Below, one piece after another: positions 1 through 8,036 of a DNA stretch of 8,036 nucleotides (position 1 is the stretch's first letter; every line of letters starts with the position of its first letter). Source of the DNA: a virus (lineage: Duplodnaviria > Heunggongvirae > Uroviricota > Caudoviricetes); IMG/VR virus record IMGVR_UViG_2534682255_000011, positions 1 to 8,036 of that record. One strand, given 5' to 3'. The notes under the pieces were generated by a model. That model had not been told where the DNA came from, searched no databases, and saw nothing but the letters and a program-made list of their open reading frames with translations. The translations under genes were made by a program, and so were the position numbers.

Positions 1-1531
1 TTACCGACGACATGAGATAGCCGCAGAAGTCCACCAGCGAATCCCCCTCACGCTTTATCGCCAGTGCTTCTTCTGATTTCTGCTGCTCATATAAAAGGCG
101 TCTGGCTTCGTCCTGATCAGCAAACCGTGTAAGCAGATGACGAATCACTACAGCAAGCTCACCTTCTATTTTTTCCGGCAGCATCGGATCGCGTTCGTTT
201 TCCGGTACAACCTCCGAAAAATTGAATATCACACGACGACGTGAGATCCCCCCGCTGCGGTCACTGAATGACATGGCGCTGTTGTTAACCGCCAGCACAA
301 CCGCCGGAATACGCGTTGAGTATGGCGCTTTGTGTTTCGGGTCAATTGCCACCTTGTCACCGCCCGTAATGGCCTTTATCCCTGCACCATCACCCGCGTA
401 GCGGGTCATATCCGGCAGAATAATCAGTGAAAAGCCAACCACTAATGCGCGTTCCCTTGCATCCTCCAGTGCCTTCATGCTTGCCGATACCGTGTTGGCC
501 TTACCTGCCAGCATGGTACAAATCTCCGCCATAACACTTTTACCGCTTCCACCAGGACCTGTTACCTCAATGAATAACTGCCAGTCGTACCGGTTCGCCA
601 GCACCATGAATAACGCCGCCAGTACGCGATCTGCCTTGCGGTCATTCTCAGCCACCGAACGGCGCAACCACTTCCAGAAATTCGGCGCATGTGTTGCCAG
701 CGTTTCCCCCTCTGCTGGTGGGCTGAAAGGTAATTCACTGGCAATTAACAACCAGTCGTTTTTGTTATGCTCCCGAAAATTACCAGTTCTGGTATCAAAT
801 ACCCCGTTACTGAATCCAATCAGGTTACGGGCTGCATTCCCCATTACGGGCAAACTTAACTTCATGGTATCGACCGCCGATTTGATGGCGTTCTGCGAAT
901 AGCTGATTTCCGCATCAATAAAAATCTGCGCCATAGTCCGCTGTAACTCTTTATCCTGTACCGGCTCCCATACAACACCGTTGTAGTGGTGAACGGTGTC
1001 AGAATCCGCATTGATTGCCAGTTCACCGCCATAATGTGCCAGGAGAACTTCGCCGCGCTGGCTTGCTCCCATCTGGTTAAGTGCCAGTGGTGTCGCGCTG
1101 TCTTCTGTTTTTTTCTTTGCCGGAAACCGGATAATCAGTCCGTCATCAATGTTTTTACGCTCACGGGCAAGGTATTCACGCCAGTTCTCACACTTCTGGC
1201 TGTGCATGCCATCAGGGTAATAATTCGCATTCTGTATACTTGCCGCCGCCAGCTTCTGACCAATTGCCTTAACCATTACAGGATCTAACTGTCCGGCTCT
1301 GAATATGCGCGCGGATGTGCGCCCATCAGGCACTATTTGCAGATTTCCGATCTCTTTCAGTTGTTCATCAGCCAGCACAACAGGTGGCTCATTATCTCCA
1401 GCCATACGCGCATCGTGTTCCTGCCATTGTTTCGCGTGTGCCCAGGCATCACTACCCGCGAAAATAATTACCTCTGTGTCTTTGTGTTTTATTCCGCGTG
1501 GCTGTTTTTTTACGTTCGGTGCCAGTTTCAT
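1..1531 (-). CDS. Replication protein, P4-family primase C-terminal domain with SF3-type helicase P-loop (P4 alpha-like); partial, C-terminus lies beyond window start
   Basis: Minus-strand frame is open from the ATG at 1531..1529 to position 1 with no stop; the ORF track omits it because it is incomplete. The translation contains a Walker A motif (VTGPGGSGKS) and the motifs LIGFSNGVFD, ITGGDKVAIDPKHK and RRRVIFNF, which are typical of the phage/plasmid primase P4-type C-terminal domain. The start overlaps the upstream ORF stop (ATGA at 1528-1531). An upstream G-rich run (GGGGGG) could serve as RBS. Confidence 0.8.
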   Translation of the reverse strand, partial: MKLAPNVKKQPRGIKHKDTEVIIFAGSDAWAHAKQWQEHDARMAGDNEPPVVLADEQLKEIGNLQIVPDGRTSARIFRAGQLDPVMVKAIGQKLAAASIQNANYYPDGMHSQKCENWREYLARERKNIDDGLIIRFPAKKKTEDSATPLALNQMGASQRGEVLLAHYGGELAINADSDTVHHYNGVVWEPVQDKELQRTMAQIFIDAEISYSQNAIKSAVDTMKLSLPVMGNAARNLIGFSNGVFDTRTGNFREHNKNDWLLIASELPFSPPAEGETLATHAPNFWKWLRRSVAENDRKADRVLAALFMVLANRYDWQLFIEVTGPGGSGKSVMAEICTMLAGKANTVSASMKALEDARERALVVGFSLIILPDMTRYAGDGAGIKAITGGDKVAIDPKHKAPYSTRIPAVVLAVNNSAMSFSDRSGGISRRRVIFNFSEVVPENERDPMLPEKIEGELAVVIRHLLTRFADQDEARRLLYEQQKSEEALAIKREGDSLVDFCGYLMSSV

Positions 1532-1770
1532 TTTTTCCCCCCTGCAACCAGCATTTCACGGATTTTGCGGATATAGCTTGCTGCACGTTTTTGATTTACG
1601 GCTTTATAATGGTCCACCAGCGTAAAATCACGGCGGTAGGTGATATTGCCTGGCGTAACGTGACGAATAACCACTCGTCCCCCACGTCTGGTGTCGCGGT
1701 AAATATCTCCGAGTCTGATTTCAGGCCGAGAGAGACCGCTGGCAGTAAAGCCAGAATTTTTCTTTTTCAT
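1528..1770 (-). CDS. Hypothetical small basic protein (80 aa), translationally coupled to the primase gene
   Basis: Complete ORF in the track. ATG at 1770 is preceded by AGGAAA about 8 nt upstream. Its stop overlaps the primase start (ATGA). No recognisable motif. Confidence 0.5.
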   Translation of the reverse strand: MKKKNSGFTASGLSRPEIRLGDIYRDTRRGGRVVIRHVTPGNITYRRDFTLVDHYKAVNQKRAASYIRKIREMLVAGGKK

Positions 1771-1800
1771 AGTTTTATTTTCCTGTCAGCAGTTCCGGTT

Positions 1801-1974
1801 TTATTTCCGCACGAATACAGAGTTCAGAAAAAATTCAGGAGAACCAACAATCTCATTACTTTTCAGTCGGCATTGTGATTTCACTTTCCCTTTATCCAGG
1901 TAAACCAGTACGCGTCCGGTGAAATCATCTGGCACATTAAGCACTACGGGTACATGCGCTTCATGATTATGCAT
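1801..1974 (-). CDS. Hypothetical small protein (57 aa)
   Basis: Not in the ORF track (below its length cut-off). Hand translation gives MHNHEAHVPVVLNVPDDFTGRVLVYLDKGKVKSQCRLKSNEIVGSPEFFLNSVFVRK with no internal stop. ATG at 1974 is preceded by GGAGGA with an 8 nt spacer and overlaps the stop of the upstream 197-aa gene (ATGCATAA). Confidence 0.4.
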   Translation of the reverse strand: MHNHEAHVPVVLNVPDDFTGRVLVYLDKGKVKSQCRLKSNEIVGSPEFFLNSVFVRK

Positions 1975-2560
1975 GGCTTACATCCTCCGTGAATTTTCTT
2001 CTGTAACGCGTCTCTGCCACATATTCCGCATAGTCCGACGCAATACTAAGAATCATTTCACCCTCTGACTTGTAGCCACTGGTATTGATAAGAAAATATG
2101 CAGCTTTCATCATGTCAGCAACGCTCAACAATGCGCCCGCTGCATCTTCCGGTGCGCCATCAAATTCCCGTTTCAGGGAATTAAAACGATCATCACGCAT
2201 GTTTACCCCCCCCTGAATGACCTGATAACCGCAACTGGTCAGCAATTCGATAAATTCCGGCAGTGTGCCGAAACAGCAATCATCACGCAGACGTTCGCGG
2301 GATACTTCAACGCCGTTTTCGTAGTGACTCACCATGCGTCCGGTAAAATGCAGATCATCATCGTGATGGCACGTTGACGGCTTAATCAGTCGCGCACGTT
2401 CCGCCAGTTCCAGCAATGCTTCAACGCTTCCGGCAATTGCACCATCCGGCAGGTGATAATTACTTACCACGCGTCCATTCTCCACGTTGACCAGTAGCTG
2501 CCCGGAAAATATCTCGTCAAACTGAATGCTGTTAAGGTCAGAAATTGACAGGTTATGCAT
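1967..2560 (-). CDS. Hypothetical protein (197 aa) of unknown function with Cys/His/Asp-rich segments
   Basis: Track ORF 1967..2578. The internal ATG at 2560 (MHNLSISD...) is preferred because AGGAGG lies 6-7 nt upstream and it overlaps the upstream stop as ATGCATAA. No family recognised by eye. Notable segments are CHHDDDLHF and RDDCCFGTLPEF. Confidence 0.6.
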   Translation of the reverse strand: MHNLSISDLNSIQFDEIFSGQLLVNVENGRVVSNYHLPDGAIAGSVEALLELAERARLIKPSTCHHDDDLHFTGRMVSHYENGVEVSRERLRDDCCFGTLPEFIELLTSCGYQVIQGGVNMRDDRFNSLKREFDGAPEDAAGALLSVADMMKAAYFLINTSGYKSEGEMILSIASDYAEYVAETRYRRKFTEDVSHA

Positions 2561-2777
2561 GGTGCACCTCCTGCACATCAGCCATGATAATTTTTCCGGC
2601 CTTATCCAGTGCCTGATCGGCTTTTAGCTGCACAAATGCTAAATAATGGAAGATGCATTCTGATTCTCTGGCTGCGTGTTTATGCGCCACACCAGCGATA
2701 GCAGAAATCTCAATAAGTGAATCCATCAGCGTTTTGATAGCGTCTACCGCTGCATCAGGCCATGTTGCATTACACAT
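2553..2777 (-). CDS. Hypothetical small protein (74 aa)
   Basis: Complete track ORF. ATG at 2777 overlaps the stop of the upstream 67-aa ORF (ATGTGTAA). A G-rich SD-like sequence (GGGGGTGG) lies just upstream. Its 3' end carries the SD for the next gene. Confidence 0.5.
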   Translation of the reverse strand: MCNATWPDAAVDAIKTLMDSLIEISAIAGVAHKHAARESECIFHYLAFVQLKADQALDKAGKIIMADVQEVHHA

Positions 2778-2973
2778 GTTCCACCCCCTGACGAATACGG
2801 GCGGCGAATACCATCACGCAGCCAACTGGGGATTGCTGGCGTGCTTCCTGTTCGCTGGTGGCCTCAATGGTAATCACGCGCGGTTGTGCCGTGCTCAGGG
2901 CGATAAAACGCCAGGTGAATTTATTCAGGTTGTGCAAGTCCCGCCCTTGCGGGTGTGTGGTATGATTTCTCAT
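2770..2973 (-). CDS. Hypothetical small protein (67 aa), first gene of the early operon; possibly Kil/Icd-like cell-division inhibitor (tentative)
   Basis: This is the C-terminal 67 codons of track ORF 2770..3513. The internal ATG at 2973 (MRNHTTHPQGRDL...) is preferred because GAGGT lies about 5 nt upstream and the long N-terminal extension would run through the promoter/operator region and the antisense of the divergent gene. The Kil/Icd-like call rests only on position (first small ORF of a P4-like early operon) and a vague resemblance (KFTWRFIALS...VMVFAARI). Confidence 0.45.
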   Translation of the reverse strand: MRNHTTHPQGRDLHNLNKFTWRFIALSTAQPRVITIEATSEQEARQQSPVGCVMVFAARIRQGVEHV

Positions 2974-3008
2974 AGCTACCTCGATACTGTTGCTATCGTT
3001 GGTGGTCA

Positions 3009-3043
3009 GAGGCTGCGAAAGGACGGCAATCCTTTTCAGCCTC
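3009..3043 (-). promoter_or_regulatory. Stable imperfect hairpin in the 5' leader of the early operon
   Basis: GAGGCTG-cg-AAAGGA-cggcaa-TCCTTT-t-CAGCCTC: a 7 bp outer stem and 6 bp inner stem separated by a small bulge. It lies 36-70 nt upstream of the 67-aa ORF start. No U-tract follows on the minus strand, so it is not a canonical intrinsic terminator. Confidence 0.3.
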
Positions 3044-3068
3044 GTTTGCATTGAGTGATAAACACTCA

Positions 3069-3150
3069 ACTGGATTCCAGTATAATCACTAAGTGGAATC
3101 CACTTCAAGCGTTTTGTTTTGGTCTTTTTCGTGTATACTGGATTCCAGTA
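3069..3150. promoter_or_regulatory. Divergent promoter region with three related palindromic operator-like sites
   Basis: Perfect inverted repeats at 3069-3081 (ACTGGA-T-TCCAGT), 3091-3105 (AAGTGGA-A-TCCACTT) and 3136-3150 (TACTGGA-T-TCCAGTA), sharing the core TGGA-W-TCCA. Candidate -10 hexamers overlap them: TATAAT at 3081-3086 and TATACT at 3134-3139 on the plus strand, and on the minus strand TTGAAG (complement of 3104-3109), an 18 nt spacer, then TATACT (complement of 3079-3084). Confidence 0.5.
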
Positions 3151-3169
3151 ATCACAAAGGGAACCAGAA

Positions 3170-3349
3170 ATGGAAAGAGACCATATCAATAACAAATCAC
3201 AGAAATTACAGGCTCGCGCCCCGCATGAAGTTGTTGAGGCTATGGAGCAAGTAAAAGAAACAGGCGAGAGCACTGCGCAATTTATCGTTACAGCCATGCG
3301 AGGCGAGATCAAACGCCGCCAGCGCCGCAAGGCCAAAGAAGCGGAATAG
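3170..3349 (+). CDS. Small DNA-binding protein, ribbon-helix-helix-like (59 aa); putative regulator of the divergent promoters
   Basis: Not in the ORF track (below cut-off). ATG at 3170 with AAGGGA 7 nt upstream; TAG at 3347-3349. Translation is MERDHINNKSQKLQARAPHEVVEAMEQVKETGESTAQFIVTAMRGEIKRRQRRKAKEAE. The pattern fits a beta-strand, helix, turn, helix Arc/CopG-type layout with a basic tail. It is the only plus-strand gene and diverges from the operator region. Confidence 0.55.
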   Translation: MERDHINNKSQKLQARAPHEVVEAMEQVKETGESTAQFIVTAMRGEIKRRQRRKAKEAE

Positions 3350-3437
3350 TCCACCAGCAAGCCAGCACACTGATCACATTGCCCACCAGCCAACAAATCG
3401 CTATGATGTTTGGGCTTATGTTTAGTGTTTTCCCATT

Positions 3438-3470
3438 GGCGACCTCTGATCCGGGTCGCCTTTGTTTTGT
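3438..3470 (+). terminator. Rho-independent terminator downstream of the RHH-like gene
   Basis: GGCGACC / GGTCGCC 7 bp stem (3438-3444 and 3454-3460) with a 9 nt loop, followed by TTTGTTTTGT. The minus-strand orientation lacks a U-tract. Confidence 0.5.
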
Positions 3471-4051
3471 CACTGAATGCGGTTGCCAAAGTAAAACTCA
3501 GGCTGATATTCACGTATCAGCCTTTTTTCTTCTTCCTCCAGCTCACGCTTTTTGCGCTTACATGCCTGTAGCTCCCTCCCCTTCTGACTGGCACTTAACT
3601 GATATTGCTCTTTACGGCGAGAAAAGTCCTGTAATGCGCCCCACGGGATACCATAAGCCCCCGTTTTTCTGATTCCTGGTATCACATTCCTGAATACCCA
3701 GTTACTGAAACGATGGGCGAACGTGCCAGGAGTAACAGCTTTCCGACTTCTGGCGATCAGCTTGTAAAAACCGGATTCAGAAATGAGGCTATGATTTGGA
3801 TTTCCTCGAATACCGTAGCTTAAAGCGACGGTTTTCTTTTCATCCGCATCTAGTGCTTTTAGAGCATCGCGTGAGTTACTTATTTCCAGAGCAACACAAA
3901 CATCCTTTGCAACAAACCACGGATCGCCGTTCAGATACACCACGCGAACGTTCACACTATCAAAGCGCAGAACGACCAGATCACGAAAATCACAGAATTT
4001 TTTTACATGACGTGCGTCACCCTTGCCCGTCACGGCAATATTTTTATTCAT
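3470..4051 (-). CDS. Bro-N domain protein (phage antirepressor-like), 193 aa, with charged coiled-coil-like C-terminus
   Basis: Complete track ORF. The N-terminal region VRVVYLNGDPWFVAKDVCVALEI...ALKALDADEK matches the Bro-N signature. The C-terminal about 50 aa is K/E/R-rich. Confidence 0.8.
   Translation of the reverse strand: MNKNIAVTGKGDARHVKKFCDFRDLVVLRFDSVNVRVVYLNGDPWFVAKDVCVALEISNSRDALKALDADEKKTVALSYGIRGNPNHSLISESGFYKLIARSRKAVTPGTFAHRFSNWVFRNVIPGIRKTGAYGIPWGALQDFSRRKEQYQLSASQKGRELQACKRKKRELEEEEKRLIREYQPEFYFGNRIQ
3500..3530 (+). terminator. Second plus-strand intrinsic terminator-like hairpin, embedded in the 3' coding end of the Bro-N gene
   Basis: AGGCTGATA / TATCAGCCT 9 bp perfect stem (3500-3508 and 3515-3523) with a 6 nt loop, followed by TTTTTTCTTCTT. 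Confidence 0.4.
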
Positions 4052-4071
4052 TTCTTTTTTACCTCACATAC

Positions 4072-4096
4072 AAAAAACCCCGCATTGCACGCGGGG
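4072..4096 (-). terminator. Rho-independent terminator after the int-alpA unit
   Basis: On the minus strand, CCCCGC-gtgcaat-GCGGGG is followed by TTTTTTG (plus-strand 4078-4096 hairpin preceded by an A-run at 4072-4077). It lies 15 nt downstream of the AlpA stop. Confidence 0.6.
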
Positions 4097-4110
4097 TATG
4101 AAAGATATTA

Positions 4111-4314
4111 TTAGTGGGGATTGGCCTGTTCTCGTTGTTTATCTAACCATGCTTCTACATCTCTACGGTGCCAGGTATGTCGTCGTCCAATTCTGAACGG
4201 CTGAGGAAAACCATTATTCTCATCTTTCCAGAAATTGATGAATGCACTCATTGCTCCATATCGCAAGATTTTCATTACGTCTTTAGTAAATAAAATATCT
4301 TCATTGGTATTCAT
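4111..4314 (-). CDS. alpA: AlpA-family (Vis/excisionase-like) small DNA-binding regulator
   Basis: Track ORF 4111..4335. The ATG at 4314 (MNTNEDILFTKDV...) is preferred because GAGGAGG lies 8 nt upstream; the 4335 start would overlap the int stop and has a weak RBS. Small size, position immediately downstream of a P4-type integrase, and a basic/aromatic C-terminal half fit AlpA-like regulators. Confidence 0.7.
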   Translation of the reverse strand: MNTNEDILFTKDVMKILRYGAMSAFINFWKDENNGFPQPFRIGRRHTWHRRDVEAWLDKQREQANPH

Positions 4315-4327
4315 TTGCTGAACCTCC

Positions 4328-5566
4328 TCAACCATTTACTACTCTTAAACCTTTCATACCACCGGATCTATTAATTACCCCTTTTCTCGCATCATCAAAA
4401 AAATCACCGACCCATTGCATCATGATCTTACGCTGTTCTAGATAAATAGTTCTATTATAAATATCTCTTATTTTATCACCACTTTTATGCGCCAATGCAG
4501 CCTCGATTACATCGGGGTTAAATCCCTCCTCATTTAAAAGCGTACTCCACATTGAACGAAAACCATGTAACGTTACAATCCCTTTGAACTTACTGGCAGC
4601 AATTGGGGTCTTGATAGTATTCCTCCCCATAGGCGCATCTTTTGTTCTGGAGGAAAAAAACACATAACGCCCTCTTTTTATTTCCTGCATTGTTCTGAGG
4701 ATACTAATAGCCTGTGATGACAAGGGAACAACATGTTCACGATGGCATTTCATTTTATGCGCGGGGATAATCCACAAGCCAGAATCAAAATCAATCTCTG
4801 ACCACTCTGCTTTAATCGCCTCACCTGGCCTGACCATTGTCAATATCTGGAATAAAAGTGCATTATGAGCTATTTGATAGGTATGAGGCACACTATCCCA
4901 CCAGCTCAGAAATTCAGGCAATCTTTCAACAGGTAGTGCTGCTAATGATTTATTTTTCTTTCCTGTGAATGCAGTCTTTATCTTAAGTAATGGATTTGCT
5001 TTCAATGCTCCACAATTTACAGCATAATTCATAATTTCATTTAATCTTGATATTAATTTTTTTTGCAACGCATTCTTATCGGATACGGCATCCAGAGCAT
5101 TAATAGCTACTGGTGCTGTAATTTTTTCTATACTGTACTTACCAAAGAAAGGAACAAGATATTTGTATACTTCATATTCGATATTATACAGCGTAGGTTT
5201 CCGCAATTCAGATCCCTTTTTAAAAGCGAACCATGCATTAGCAACAGCTTCAAATGTCTGTAGATTTTTTAGTGACATCTCAATTTTACGATTTTTCTTC
5301 TCCGTCACTGGATCAACTCCACGTGCAATCATTCGCCGAAGTTCATCACGTACTTCCCGTGCTTCCGCGAGTGAGAATTCAGGAAAACGTCCTATCGTGT
5401 ATGTCTGCCGTTTCTTCGTTATCGGATGGCTATAACGGAAACGCCACACTTTCCCACCGGCTTTACTCACATTCAGCAATAAACCGAACCCATCATAAAC
5501 GGCATAGTCCTTTTCACGTGGTTTCATCCCCTTAACTTCAGTCACGGTTAATGGCTTTACCGACAT
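4328..5566 (-). CDS. int: Tyrosine site-specific integrase, P4-like
   Basis: 412 aa. The N-terminus (LTVTEVKGMKPREKDYAVYDGFGLLLNVSKAGGKVWRFRY) matches the arm-binding domain of P4-family integrases. The C-terminus has HGFRSMWST...IRDIYNRTIY, consistent with the catalytic H/R/Y region. GAGGG lies 6 nt upstream of the ATG. The gene is visibly AT-rich compared with its neighbours. Confidence 0.9.
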   Translation of the reverse strand: MSVKPLTVTEVKGMKPREKDYAVYDGFGLLLNVSKAGGKVWRFRYSHPITKKRQTYTIGRFPEFSLAEAREVRDELRRMIARGVDPVTEKKNRKIEMSLKNLQTFEAVANAWFAFKKGSELRKPTLYNIEYEVYKYLVPFFGKYSIEKITAPVAINALDAVSDKNALQKKLISRLNEIMNYAVNCGALKANPLLKIKTAFTGKKNKSLAALPVERLPEFLSWWDSVPHTYQIAHNALLFQILTMVRPGEAIKAEWSEIDFDSGLWIIPAHKMKCHREHVVPLSSQAISILRTMQEIKRGRYVFFSSRTKDAPMGRNTIKTPIAASKFKGIVTLHGFRSMWSTLLNEEGFNPDVIEAALAHKSGDKIRDIYNRTIYLEQRKIMMQWVGDFFDDARKGVINRSGGMKGLRVVNG

Positions 5567-5727
5567 CTATCGCCCTCATTTTTTAGTCCGTCATGTAGTC
5601 CATTCAAGCCAATAACAAGCGATAAACTAACTCATTATCAAGCAAAGAGAGGAAACTCATAAAATCACAACTCATTGAAAAGACTATGAAACGACACCAG
5701 AACATACAAACAGGTAAGAAATGTACC

Positions 5728-6735
5728 CTACATCCAAAATGACGCAATCCGGGAGTTTCGTGGCGTTCCGGTGATACTGCCGTCCGCCGCCGCCCGTTCA
5801 CCTTCACGAAGCCAGATCCCCTGGTTATTCAGTTCGCGTTTCTGCTCAGGGGCAATCAGCCCGCGACAATGCGGACACATCAGACGGGCAGCCTGACCGG
5901 CAGCCACAAAATCCGGGTTATTCCGGTATCCGGTCATGTTATCCATCACCGGCTGAAAATATTCCCCGCAGTGCGGACACGGCCAGTACCACCGGCGGCG
6001 GTCTCCCCGGTTATACAGTGACAGGATCCCCGTTGTTGGCGGTGCCTCATGTGCGCCACCACAACGCCATTTGGTATCGGTGATATCCCGCCCCGGTGAA
6101 CTCTCGACCAGGGTCATCCCCGAGGACATAAAGGTGGTGGTACGCTTTGAGGCCAGCGTGAAGGCATCCCCTTCCCCGTCCACATTTTCAGGGAAACGGT
6201 CATAATCCGTCAGCGCCACACGACGGTAATCCGAAGAGGAAAAGACGGTGATCGACGGCCAGCCAATCTTCAGGAAGGAGCCGTCAAGAAACATTTTATC
6301 GTGGACGTTGTTGTCATTACGGGAAGGACTGAGGCGCTTGCTGACCTCCGGACTGTGGCGAAACGTCCTGGAAAGACGCGTTCTGGAATGCTCACGCGCC
6401 TTCGTCTCAGTCATCTGCACCACCAGCATATCCGCCGGATCACAGATGATGCCGTACACAATCCAGCCATCAATCAGCCCTTCGGTTTTCCCGGTTCGCG
6501 CAGGTCCCACAAACACCACCGCGTCATATTCACGGGCTGATAATGTATTAATGGGGTCAATCATATAGGGCGTCAGCGATGACTCCCACGGACCGGAAGT
6601 ATTGGCTCCCCGTGGAACCCGCATATAACGCCTGATGGCTTCCGCTACTGGTAACCGGCTGGGTGGGCGAAACAGCGAGGCCACTTCGCGCCAGATATCG
6701 GATGCGCGGCTATGGCTCTCGTTCACCTGATTCAC
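5728..6735 (-). pseudogene. Terminase large subunit (lambda gpA-like), N-terminal 335 codons only; truncated
   Basis: The translation aligns by eye with the lambda gpA N-terminus as recalled from memory (SLFRP near the start; CPHCGE zinc-ribbon-like motif; GIWLREG), and VFVGPARTGKTE looks like a P-loop. The ORF stops at 5728 at roughly half the length of lambda gpA, and the 160 bp downstream are AT-rich non-coding sequence running into int. The track start is GTG at 6735, overlapping the Nu1-like stop (GTGA). Confidence 0.8.
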
Positions 6736-7208
6736 ATATCGGCCTCATCACAACAGTCAATGACTGCCTTTTCCAGTGTGTCGCGGATCTCATCAACCAC
6801 AATCTGTACTTCATTCAGTTGTGATGCAGTCCACCCCCTGTCCCTCTCCAGCCGGTCAGGCCAGGTTTCCAGTACCTGAACTATCGCTTTCACCACGACA
6901 GAAAAGGACCGCCTGACATCACTGACTGGCACAAGCTGAACAGTTTCATGCTGAAATTTAAGACGCTCGCGCTCGGACTGATACCATGCCTTACGAGCGT
7001 GAGGATCCATATCCTCATCTTCGGAAGATGGTGGTTTTTCCAGCAACGAAGTTATCAAATCCGTCAGGAGATACAGTTTTTTCTTTTCATTACTGCCTGG
7101 TGCAAGAGGAACATCCGCCATTCTGGCGGCAACAGTCTGCCGGTGCAGACCTGAAAGGGCTGCCAGTTGATTAATATTTAACTTCATATTTTTCAGCTCG
7201 CCGTCCAT
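6732..7208 (-). CDS. Terminase small subunit (lambda Nu1-like)
   Basis: The N-terminal KLNINQLAALSGLHRQTVAARMA resembles the Nu1 HTH region (lambda EVNKKQLADIFGASIRTIQNW, from memory). GGAGGG lies 6 nt upstream of the ATG at 7208; an alternative start at 7187 (MKLNIN...) aligns better with lambda. The stop overlaps the terminase large subunit start. Confidence 0.8.
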   Translation of the reverse strand: MDGELKNMKLNINQLAALSGLHRQTVAARMADVPLAPGSNEKKKLYLLTDLITSLLEKPPSSEDEDMDPHARKAWYQSERERLKFQHETVQLVPVSDVRRSFSVVVKAIVQVLETWPDRLERDRGWTASQLNEVQIVVDEIRDTLEKAVIDCCDEADM

Positions 7209-7384
7209 TTACATCCCTCCACATAAACCGCAGAACAGAAGTGACTCTGTTTTTTTGTAAAGAAATGCCGCCATATAAAGATGTCGAACAAAAAACAACC
7301 ACAATCATCATCTTTTTAATACTAACAGCATTAAAAACAACAAGTTACCATCATGATGATGATGACGATAAAATCACAAAAATG

Positions 7385-7420
7385 CGCCTTTTTCCGCGCC
7401 CGCCCGCCCCGTGTTCAGGC
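7385..7420. other. Candidate lambda-type cos site (cosN-like GC-rich core) upstream of the terminase small subunit gene
   Basis: Minus-strand reading gives GGGGCGGGCGGGCGCGGAAAAAGGCGCATTTTTG, resembling the lambda left end GGGCGGCGACCTCGCGGGTTTTCGC (from memory). It lies about 180 bp upstream of the Nu1-like start and is followed by an AT-rich tract. Exact cut positions are not determinable from sequence. Confidence 0.4.
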
Positions 7421-7669
7421 CCACCCCACCAGGAGGACCCGCAAAAATGATAATGGTTATCATTTGCAACAAAATCCAGTTTCTTCCACCATCGCACCGG
7501 ACTGGCGACTATGAGGGGACAACACCGCGCTCCGTTAACGCGGTAAACCCCGGTGTGTATCGTTTTTGATTATCCCCGCACACTCTCGCAGAGGAGTCTC
7601 CCTGTCGGGCTGCGGTCTCTGTTAATGCAGGAATACGGCGACAATACCGCGCATGAATAATAAGGTCGC

Positions 7670-7894
7670 TCAACACACTGGCTGTAATGCAGCGGATACC
7701 ATGCGGCATTTAGCGGCATTCATCGTACACTCAACGGTTAGCTCTTCATTCGTGGCATTCACCTGAAAGGTCCTGGAGTGTAATTGCGTACATTTACCAC
7801 TGAACGAACCTTCAACAAGAACACGACCACGCTGCAAAATACGGAACGGAATTGTTCCCTGAAAAGGCTTTACGGTTACCAATAATTTCTTCAT
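7670..7894 (-). CDS. Hypothetical small protein (74 aa) between the lysis module and cos
   Basis: Track ORF 7670..7912 begins at TTG. The internal ATG at 7894 (MKKLLVTVKPF...) has GGAGAA 5 nt upstream. Four Cys residues; no recognisable family. Confidence 0.4.
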   Translation of the reverse strand: MKKLLVTVKPFQGTIPFRILQRGRVLVEGSFSGKCTQLHSRTFQVNATNEELTVECTMNAAKCRMVSAALQPVC

Positions 7895-7917
7895 GCATTC
7901 TCCGAATAACAAAAATA

Positions 7918-8036
7918 CTAGTTAATACACTGAGTGCGGATATATTCCTGAAGCATTCTCAATGCTGCCTGGTCGCTGATGATTCCGTCTCTGATACCGA
8001 GAACGTTTCGTCCAGCAACCGGAGAGAGTTCGACGG
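7918..8036 (-). CDS. Rz-like i-spanin, C-terminal fragment (partial; start beyond window end)
   Basis: Minus-strand frame is open from the window end to TAG at 7918-7920. The C-terminus ...AALRMLQEYIRTQCIN resembles the lambda Rz C-terminus ...QKQLEGTQKYINEQCR (from memory). Its position just upstream of cos and Nu1 is as expected for a lambdoid late region. Confidence 0.45.
   Translation of the reverse strand, partial: VELSPVAGRNVLGIRDGIISDQAALRMLQEYIRTQCIN

Follow-up and report, generated by a model that had tools for sequence, protein, structure and literature searches.

The window analysed here is the whole 8,036-nucleotide stretch of the IMG/VR virus record IMGVR_UViG_2534682255_000011 (positions 1 to 8,036), and this report concerns a gene within it that encodes a protein with a Bro-N domain, referred to as bro. 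The gene belongs to a phage satellite, in which an integrase gene (int), an alpA-like gene and bro are followed by a convergent ylcI/ynfO-family gene (ylcI) and an operon running from an icd-like gene to a primase gene. A first-pass annotation had presented bro as a candidate antirepressor of a helper prophage; its strand is amended here to minus. The features of the gene and of its two flanks are:

3470-4051, minus strand: bro coding sequence, 193 aa, with ATG at 4051 and TGA at 3472-3470 (open reading frame (ORF) list, Pfam and RefSeq)
3662-3979, minus strand: Bro-N domain, residues ~25-130 (AlphaFold2, Foldseek and sequence identity)
3506-3625, minus strand: charged C-terminal helix, residues 143-182 (AlphaFold2 prediction)
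4062-4065, minus strand: Shine-Dalgarno motif GAGG, 10 nt upstream of the ATG (read from the sequence)
4071-4097, minus strand: intrinsic terminator between alpA and bro, with the stem at 4097-4077 and a T6 run (terminator scan)
3438-3470, plus strand: terminator of the convergent ylcI transcript, just past the bro stop (-15.8 kcal/mol, z -4.2)
3500-3533, plus strand: second, antisense terminator within the last bro codons (-13.8 kcal/mol, z -7.5)

On the minus strand, the stop codon of alpA (4113-4111) is followed by the hairpin ACCCCGCGTGCAATGCGGGGT, the T6 run, 19 nt including GAGG, and the ATG of bro. The hairpin begins 14 nt past the alpA stop, and folding gave -14.8 kcal/mol with a z of -3.2. 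Bro is thus located directly behind the int-alpA terminator, as first annotated, with hairpin and T6 ending ~20 nt before the ATG. No sigma-70-like promoter of at least 9/12 was found upstream of bro on the minus strand. A promoter of its own was rejected, since the weak 8/12 matches occur only inside alpA, upstream of the terminator. The same annotation had stated that bro needs either its own promoter or read-through; with no detectable promoter and a terminator in front, read-through is needed. No LexA box (CTG-N10-CAG) was found within 1.7 kb of bro, and the best LexA-like sites in the whole window, at 1200-1215 and 1739-1754, reached 9/16 only. SOS control of bro was rejected for the lack of a LexA box nearby.

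The junction was compared among the E. coli loci that were read with a Bro protein at least 86% identical, here called the E. coli clade. All of them possess an alpA-bro spacer of 46-59 nt, with a hairpin and T6 ending 21-26 nt before the ATG. The terminator precedes bro behind at least four unrelated alpA 3' ends and in several junction variants. A compensatory change was found in the stem (CCCCGC/GCGGGG to CCCCTC/GAGGGG), and the Shine-Dalgarno motif is kept in all junction variants as GAGGTA or AAGGTA.

On the other side of bro, the hairpin at 3438-3470 is without a T run on the bro strand. It recurs with loop variants and a conserved stem in loci L005, L006, L104, L105 and L114. The hairpin at 3500-3533 is a perfect 10-bp stem followed by a T run, a second terminator for transcription in the sense of ylcI. 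Other genera lack it; the E. coli clade keeps it, with a single G-U-preserving change. No terminator was found after bro on the bro strand, as neither of the two downstream hairpins has a T run on that strand; transcription of bro would therefore run antisense across ylcI toward the icd-to-primase operon. From the position of these hairpins, the E. coli cassette is one with a sense terminator in front and two antisense terminators guarding the other side.

Comparison with other E. coli satellites indicated that the position of bro is a variable slot. The 119 nt downstream of bro, which comprise the ylcI terminator region, recur in many E. coli satellites without bro. In two satellites located at cspD/yljB (L002 and L004), alpA is followed directly by the ylcI terminator region or by a small ORF on the opposite strand, and there is no gene on the bro strand. 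In a third satellite, located at gcd (L003), a protein with an ORF6N domain occupies the slot. In addition, the G+C content is 0.39 in int/alpA but 0.46 in bro, and satellites with unrelated alpA genes begin to share DNA homology within the terminator hairpin. Judged from these loci, the slot between int-alpA and the convergent ylcI is variable, and bro is a cassette that can be exchanged there. The slot being empty in L002 and L004 and filled with ORF6N in L003, "inserted", the word of the first-pass annotation, describes the gene fairly, and the G+C step agrees with it. Bro showed no similarity to the ORF6N protein of L003, nor to the AntA-type protein of the helper lysis cassette, and a C-terminal module common to Bro and either of these proteins was rejected.

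In the E. coli clade, bro was found with at least four int/alpA types and at least five helper late-gene targets. The targets were a gpA-type terminase large subunit gene (terL), a lambda-A-type terL, a portal gene, a P27/HK97-type terL, and a tail-region gene after FII/Z. All sampled contexts of this clade are helper-embedded except L011, where an identical int-alpA-bro module is present at a chromosomal site.

The RefSeq entry for the same coding sequence is WP_001038670.1, a BRO-N domain-containing protein. Pfam Bro-N (PF02498) matched residues 34-125 with 68.1 bits (E 1.1e-18; gathering score 25.6 bits) over profile positions 1-96 of 96, and the Pfam scan detected no domain besides Bro-N. 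In PHROGs, phrog_2593 "anti-repressor" was matched at E 1e-85. The AlphaFold2 model, built from an 83-sequence alignment (mean predicted local distance difference test score (pLDDT) 84), has a predicted N-terminus without order; residues 25-130 are predicted to fold into a compact domain and residues 143-182 to form a single long helix. The pLDDT is mostly 84-97 over the Bro-N domain. In the helix it is ~93 over the block of residues 150-180, and at most 78 at both ends. The 40 residues of the helix include 13 K/R and 8 D/E, and the 63 residues of the tail (131-193) include 14 K/R and 10 D/E. The long charged C-terminal tail that had been attributed to the protein is consequently seen in the residue counts and the predicted helix.

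The best Foldseek match in the PDB was 4ye7 (N-domain of baculovirus Orf22), followed by the APSES proteins Mbp1 and PCG2 and the SKI/Dachshund DNA-binding fold. The search in BFVD retrieved 152 matches at E <= 1e-3, in which phages, baculoviruses and giant viruses are represented, and the named proteins among the top 50 were mostly Bro-N or "Repressor domain". A solved structure of a close Bro relative was not found by sequence. The predicted fold resembles DNA-binding folds, and Bro may bind DNA; in the literature, the Bro-N superfamily is described as DNA-binding.

A search of 5.8 billion proteins showed that the close homologues of Bro are nearly all from E. coli, on hundreds of contigs. 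The close homologues listed are 193-194 aa long, except for a few entries marked as partial, and full-length relatives of 175-226 aa were found across Enterobacterales. The possibility that Bro is a truncated form of a longer antirepressor, which arises because only positions 1-192 of the 255 of phrog_2593 were matched, was rejected because of these lengths. Among E. coli alleles the dN/dS of bro is 0.14-0.22, values that indicate purifying selection on the protein. The amino-acid changes among these alleles are concentrated at residues 53-90, where three patch types recur. Some of these types resemble the matching stretch of different phage Bro-N proteins. The 53-90 patch is likely a specificity surface.

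The Bro-N domain itself is widespread, and a profile-free scan of 1.84 billion representatives found it in 21,724 clusters at E <= 1e-3. In the same scan the full architecture, Bro-N with this tail, showed a narrow distribution. A scan of one genome per species gave 46 cross-genus loci that match through the C-terminal tail (to residue ~165-192 of 193) with 47-67% identity. They belong to Providencia, Xenorhabdus, Pantoea, Erwinia, Serratia, Proteus, Klebsiella, Yersinia, Gilliamella, Aeromonas and other genera, and the tail motif YG-P-G-L-D...R...Y...AS..G..LQ.CK..K..L..EE..L...YQP is conserved in them. The helix at residues 143-182 is kept in the full-length Enterobacterales relatives and absent from phage Bro-N proteins.

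Neighbours in the cross-genus loci, detected by similarity to a reference panel, include an integrase upstream (43 of 46), an alpA-like gene (31 of 46), a convergent DUF3950/YlcI gene in the same position (20 of 46), and a primase (13 of 46). In most loci, the longest ORF found in the 2.6 kb upstream of int is housekeeping-like. Read from the sequence, these ORFs include genes that we take to be mgsA, yicC, rph, prfC, lysS, folD, cysS, proA and smpB. Housekeeping genes beside int suggest that most of the cross-genus loci are ordinary chromosomal phage-inducible chromosomal islands (PICIs). Locus L018 is a PICI of the capsid-forming type.

The junction in the other genera differs from that of the E. 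coli cassette. In 39 of the 46 loci, bro starts -14 to +21 nt from the ORF before it on the same strand, either alpA or a conserved ORF of ~140 aa. In six of the remaining loci the gap is 95-308 nt, and in the last no ORF was called upstream. No terminator was found in the alpA-side junction of the 46 loci. The tight spacing and the lack of a junction terminator place bro in the alpA transcription unit. The ~140-aa ORF is located between alpA and bro in L025, L029, L036, L045 and others, ~430 nt upstream and ending 12-18 nt from bro; it possesses the motif KPAPKKHRAR...GFTENEIL.YCRLSSGRNY and has no Pfam match. In the metagenomic locus L020, a protein with AntA and ANT/KilAC domains (8679-9443) is encoded directly after bro, so that some satellites carry two Bro-network genes in tandem behind alpA.

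The genes upstream of bro in the window are those of the satellite integration region and of the helper:

4111-4335, minus strand: alpA-like helix-turn-helix (HTH) gene, phrog_66 "excisionase and transcriptional regulator", weak HTH_17 match, RefSeq start at 4314
4328-5566, minus strand: satellite tyrosine integrase (Pfam Arm-DNA-bind_3, Phage_int_M and Phage_integrase)
5728-6735, minus strand: N-terminal fragment of the helper terminase large subunit, gpA (Pfam GpA_ATPase, E 6e-82; "missing C-terminus" in RefSeq)

The window matches chromosomes of E. coli O157:H7 at 99% identity. The helper terL is split, with the N-part of 335 codons in the window and the C-part 10.4 kb away. The attL side corresponds to window positions 5567-6735, and the two parts of terL are located in locus L001 at 6183-7313 and 17731-18735. 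In NZ_CP038416.1, Q, tRNAs, holin-lysozyme-Rz, terS (DUF1441), the N-part of terL, int, alpA and bro follow each other on one strand. After bro come ylcI on the opposite strand, the icd-like gene, three small ORFs, DUF4222, primase and single-stranded DNA-binding protein (SSB), and then a ClpP-protease/major-capsid fusion, the rest of terL, portal, and capsid and tail genes. DUF4222 and the primase are found below position 1770 of the window, and the SSB and the fusion lie outside it. The split terL and the co-oriented gene order point to a 10.4-kb satellite inside the terminase gene of a lambdoid prophage. Packaging of DNA by the helper would be impossible until the satellite excises.

The helper is integrated at mlrA (yehV), and its own genes include those for an integrase and an S24-peptidase CI-type repressor, as well as cro, O/P and Q. 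Across terS/terL it shares 99.7% identity with phage VT1-Sakai. By these genes, the helper is a lambdoid prophage of E. coli O157:H7 that resembles Shiga toxin 1 (Stx1) phages. No stx gene was seen among the annotated features between the helper Q and the lysis genes, which was the stretch inspected. The ClpP-protease/major-capsid fusion of the satellite (L001 8218-10107) is 52% identical to that of the helper, and this captured protein may redirect capsid assembly.

PICIs embedded in their helper (helper-embedded PICIs, HE-PICIs) have been described with an Integration zone (int and AlpA), a Bro zone, a Replication zone and a Late zone (Tommasini, Mageeney & Williams 2023, NAR Genom Bioinform; PMC10111431). 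The Bro zone was described there as dynamic and rich in domain-swapping proteins of a "Bro network", for which no function was given. The element of the window lies inside terL, is co-oriented with Q, the lysis genes and terS, and has the published zone order. By this position and order it is an HE-PICI, and bro is its Bro-zone gene, between the int/AlpA and replication zones.

At a rough probability of 45%, we regard bro as an accessory Bro-N regulator that is expressed only by read-through, most plausibly from Q-antiterminated late transcription of the helper. In lambdoid phages, the intrinsic terminators of the late operon do not stop Q-modified RNA polymerase. The satellite is co-oriented within the Q-dependent late operon of the helper, and such a polymerase is therefore the most plausible terminator-resistant source. 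In the quiescent embedded state bro would be silent, its expression depending on read-through from int-alpA transcription only. In the late phase, Q-modified polymerase of the helper would transcribe int, alpA, the terminator and bro; an alternative source of read-through would be AlpA-driven transcription plus leak. In the E. coli PICI EcCICFT073, lysogens express more alpA only when they are induced, and AlpA switches on both its own promoter and PICI genes downstream (PMC6092414). Since bro lies downstream of the helper late operon and behind a terminator, Bro would most likely be made after helper derepression, together with Int and AlpA. The Bro-N domain would then let it work in trans, with DNA or a helper or satellite regulator as the target, and so adjust gene expression of the helper or the satellite during the lytic programme. 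Bro would be an accessory factor that bears specificity, neither part of the core cycle of the satellite nor the trigger of helper induction. That helper late transcription enters the embedded satellite has been proposed before (PMC10111431), in a paper that leaves terminators and antitermination undiscussed.

Several points weigh against this interpretation. The Q-dependent read-through is transferred from established lambdoid biology, and the binding of Bro to DNA is argued from fold likeness and from the superfamily literature. The nearest phage relatives of the Bro-N domain sit in anti-immunity modules, namely immA of N15 and phiKO2 and arc-ant of Kapi1. In L056, a Xenorhabdus locus embedded in a tail-tube gene, bro starts 11 nt behind an HTH gene with no terminator, which weakens a strict link between the terminator and embedding in a helper. 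The link seen in E. coli may reflect common descent of one cassette rather than adaptation.

The alternative closest to the first-pass annotation is that Bro is an antirepressor directed at the helper. It would bind and inactivate a CI-type repressor, either that of the helper or that of lambdoid prophages in the same cell. Induction of the helper or of these prophages would follow, or an infecting helper would be committed to lytic growth. The PHROG and NCBI family names are "anti-repressor", and the Bro-N domain is 63% identical to gp27 of phiKO2, 51% identical to Ant of Kapi1, and 47% identical to gp30 of N15. The phiKO2 record describes gp27 as "similar to auxiliary anti-repressor N15 AntB", a member of an icd-antA-antB anti-immunity operon, and the Kapi1 protein is found at the P22 "ant" position behind Arc. 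Terminators on both sides of bro fit a product that is harmful if expressed untimely, and a satellite profits from pushing its helper into lysis. Kapi1 is also the helper of the related E. coli PICI EcCIMP1, which likewise carries an "antirepressor" gene.

However, the homology stops at the end of Bro-N. Similarity of Bro to annotated phages is limited to residues ~24-134, and the BLASTP alignment with phiKO2 gp27 covers residues 35-134 only. The Pfam scan found no ANT/KilAC (PF03374), AntA (PF08346), P22_AR_N or P22_AR_C domain in Bro, although the same scan detected P22_AR_C in Kapi1 Ant and AntA plus ANT in the neighbour gene of L020. The antirepressor proper of N15 and phiKO2 is the 76-aa AntA (the AntA homologue of phiKO2 is gp28, 76 aa) and not the Bro-N protein, and no AntA-like gene of this size was seen among the ORFs adjoining bro. 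Bro has no similarity to P4 epsilon and no LexA box, its fold resembles those of DNA-binding proteins, and it is probably made once the helper has been derepressed. In addition, the helper has its own S24-peptidase CI-type repressor; repressors of this type self-cleave in the SOS response. An identical Bro allele (P0024) is present with helpers of differing lysis regions, which speaks weakly against a repressor-specific partner. We consider this alternative doubtful, and several of these sequence features argue against bro as the trigger of helper induction. A possible role of Bro is to commit a lambdoid phage, be it infecting or resident in the same cell, to lytic growth. Of the first-pass annotation, the Bro-N domain, the tail, the satellite, the terminator, the read-through and the variable slot stand; the antirepressor that derepresses the helper, in a role like that of P4 epsilon, found no support in any test run.

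A decoy function would explain the protein differently, as a Bro-N domain taken over from temperate phages without the C-terminal effector domain. It would compete for a DNA site or partner with Ant- or AntB-type regulators of the helper or of rival phages and block them, and thus serve in immunity or in taming the helper. Only a 60-aa helix follows the domain here, compared with phage proteins of 260-314 aa to which it is 47-63% identical. The different phage-like forms of the 53-90 patch and the domain swapping described for the Bro zone (PMC10111431) are also in favour of this alternative. Nonetheless, the C-terminal helix is conserved across orders, which argues that Bro is not a simple truncation, and an experimental precedent for a Bro-N decoy is absent. 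No known defence family was matched either: Bro had no match in the PADLOC-DB models at E <= 0.01, similar to five of the six neighbours scanned, and alpA alone gave a weak match, to the candidate-system model PDC-M06B (E 2.4e-4). Bro as a known anti-phage defence protein was rejected on this basis, and the decoy function is improbable.

Bro could also act on a switch of the satellite itself, formed by the genes that follow it:

3170-3349, plus strand: ylcI/ynfO-family gene, 59 aa, convergent on bro (NCBIfam YlcI_YnfO_N, E 2e-20; phrog_949)
3059-3108, both strands: predicted overlapping divergent promoter-like sites of ylcI (plus) and of the icd-to-primase operon (minus)
2770-2973, minus strand: Icd-like gene at the head of the replication operon (NCBIfam phage_ICD_like, E 2e-19)

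In the consensus scan, the promoter-like sites of ylcI and icd reached 10/12 and 9/12, respectively, with overlapping -10 hexamers. Binding of RNA polymerase to them would be mutually exclusive, which suggests a switch, and this divergent pair at ~3059-3108 is the "regulatory region" before which the first-pass annotation had placed bro. The 59-aa YlcI reads like a ribbon-helix-helix protein and is a candidate small repressor of the satellite. Made together with AlpA, Bro would antagonise this YlcI-type repressor or bind the ylcI/icd promoters, and so open the icd-to-primase operon. The location of bro between alpA and the convergent ylcI, an arrangement shared by the 20 cross-genus loci mentioned above, is in favour of such a role, as is the read-through that would cross ylcI antisense into the icd operon. 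However, L002 and L004 share the ylcI-icd-primase module without bro, and L003 has an unrelated ORF6N protein. With the same module present where bro is not, Bro cannot be required for the switch, and the repressor role of YlcI is itself only a deduction. A role of Bro in this switch is rather improbable.

In the same region, the place of the Icd-like gene corresponds to that of icd in immI of P1 and immA of N15, and to that of kil/eta in P4. No C4/isrK-type (P4 CI-type) immunity RNA was matched by Rfam in the window at E <= 1, upstream of the Icd-like gene included, and an RNA of this type, as reported for some Bro zones, was rejected. At 1775-2578 on the minus strand, RefSeq marks a frameshifted small ORF; ORFs of 57 aa and 203 aa each have an N-terminal match to phrog_340, which points to duplication or decay of a module.

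Also improbable is that the cassette is a sensor and effector of the helper late phase. One sense and two antisense terminators would keep it silent until Q-antiterminated polymerase of the helper turned it on in cis, with Bro then exerting anti-immunity in trans on other lambdoid prophages of the cell, including Stx prophages.

The HE-PICI element type and the existence of a Bro zone are already published, and Bro-N genes are very common. The terminator-insulated cassette of E. coli helper-embedded satellites, and its contrast with the alpA-coupled relatives of other genera, appear to be undescribed before. The main yield is that a frequent, uncharacterised E. coli protein family is placed in a defined slot of a described satellite type. 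If expression is by read-through as favoured here, an embedded satellite uses the antitermination of its helper as a timing signal for accessory genes. If Bro were instead an antirepressor, prophage induction would be under the influence of a satellite that is common in Shiga-toxin-producing E. coli, and toxin-phage activity could be affected. A sensor and effector would couple the induction of one prophage to that of others in polylysogenic enterohaemorrhagic E. coli.

Among known systems, SOS-controlled antirepressors of the Gifsy GfoA/GfhA and N15 AntC type feature a LexA box at their promoter, and bro has none. N15 AntB and phiKO2 gp27 share the Bro-N domain, and an Icd-like gene is also present in the satellite. 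They are 260-264 aa long with another C-terminal half, and are encoded downstream of icd and antA in one operon (immA); in the satellite, bro is located upstream of icd with a convergent gene between them. The P22-type Ant of Kapi1, encoded behind Arc, consists of Bro-N and P22_AR_C according to the Pfam scan. Bro differs from it by lacking both P22_AR_C and an Arc/Mnt-controlled promoter.

Epsilon of P4 is a satellite-encoded antirepressor of the helper, directed at the P2 C repressor. Similar to bro, epsilon and the vis-eta/kil genes are satellite genes between an AlpA-type gene and a primase. The positions differ, as epsilon follows cI/kil and precedes orf151-alpha, and the kil/eta slot corresponds to the Icd-like gene and not to bro. 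P4 is also not embedded in its helper, whereas this satellite is. By BLASTP, Bro showed no similarity to epsilon (best E 0.15 over 19 residues) or to eta/kil, and the Icd-like protein showed none to kil/eta. Homology of Bro to epsilon or eta/kil was rejected for this lack of similarity.

In Vibrio cholerae, CapR of the PICI-like element (PLE) is a satellite DNA-binding protein that represses the late (capsid) promoter of the helper (Netter et al. 2021; PMC8096241). Similar to Bro, CapR is a satellite protein of the wider Bro/KilA/T5orf172 network. It is not a Bro-N protein, its helper is a lytic phage, and the two proteins are likened by description and not by homology. To our knowledge, CapR is the only satellite member of this network with a tested function.

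The closest comparison is with the HE-PICIs of PMC10111431. That paper contains no alpA-bro terminator, antisense terminators or contrast with alpA-coupled relatives, and the Rfam C4/isrK immunity-RNA matches reported there have no counterpart in this window. Similar to those elements, the satellite described here is located inside a helper late gene and co-oriented with it, and possesses int, AlpA, a Bro-network gene, primase/SSB and a captured capsid gene. It also shares with them a dynamic Bro slot, occupied by Bro-N, ORF6N and similar proteins.

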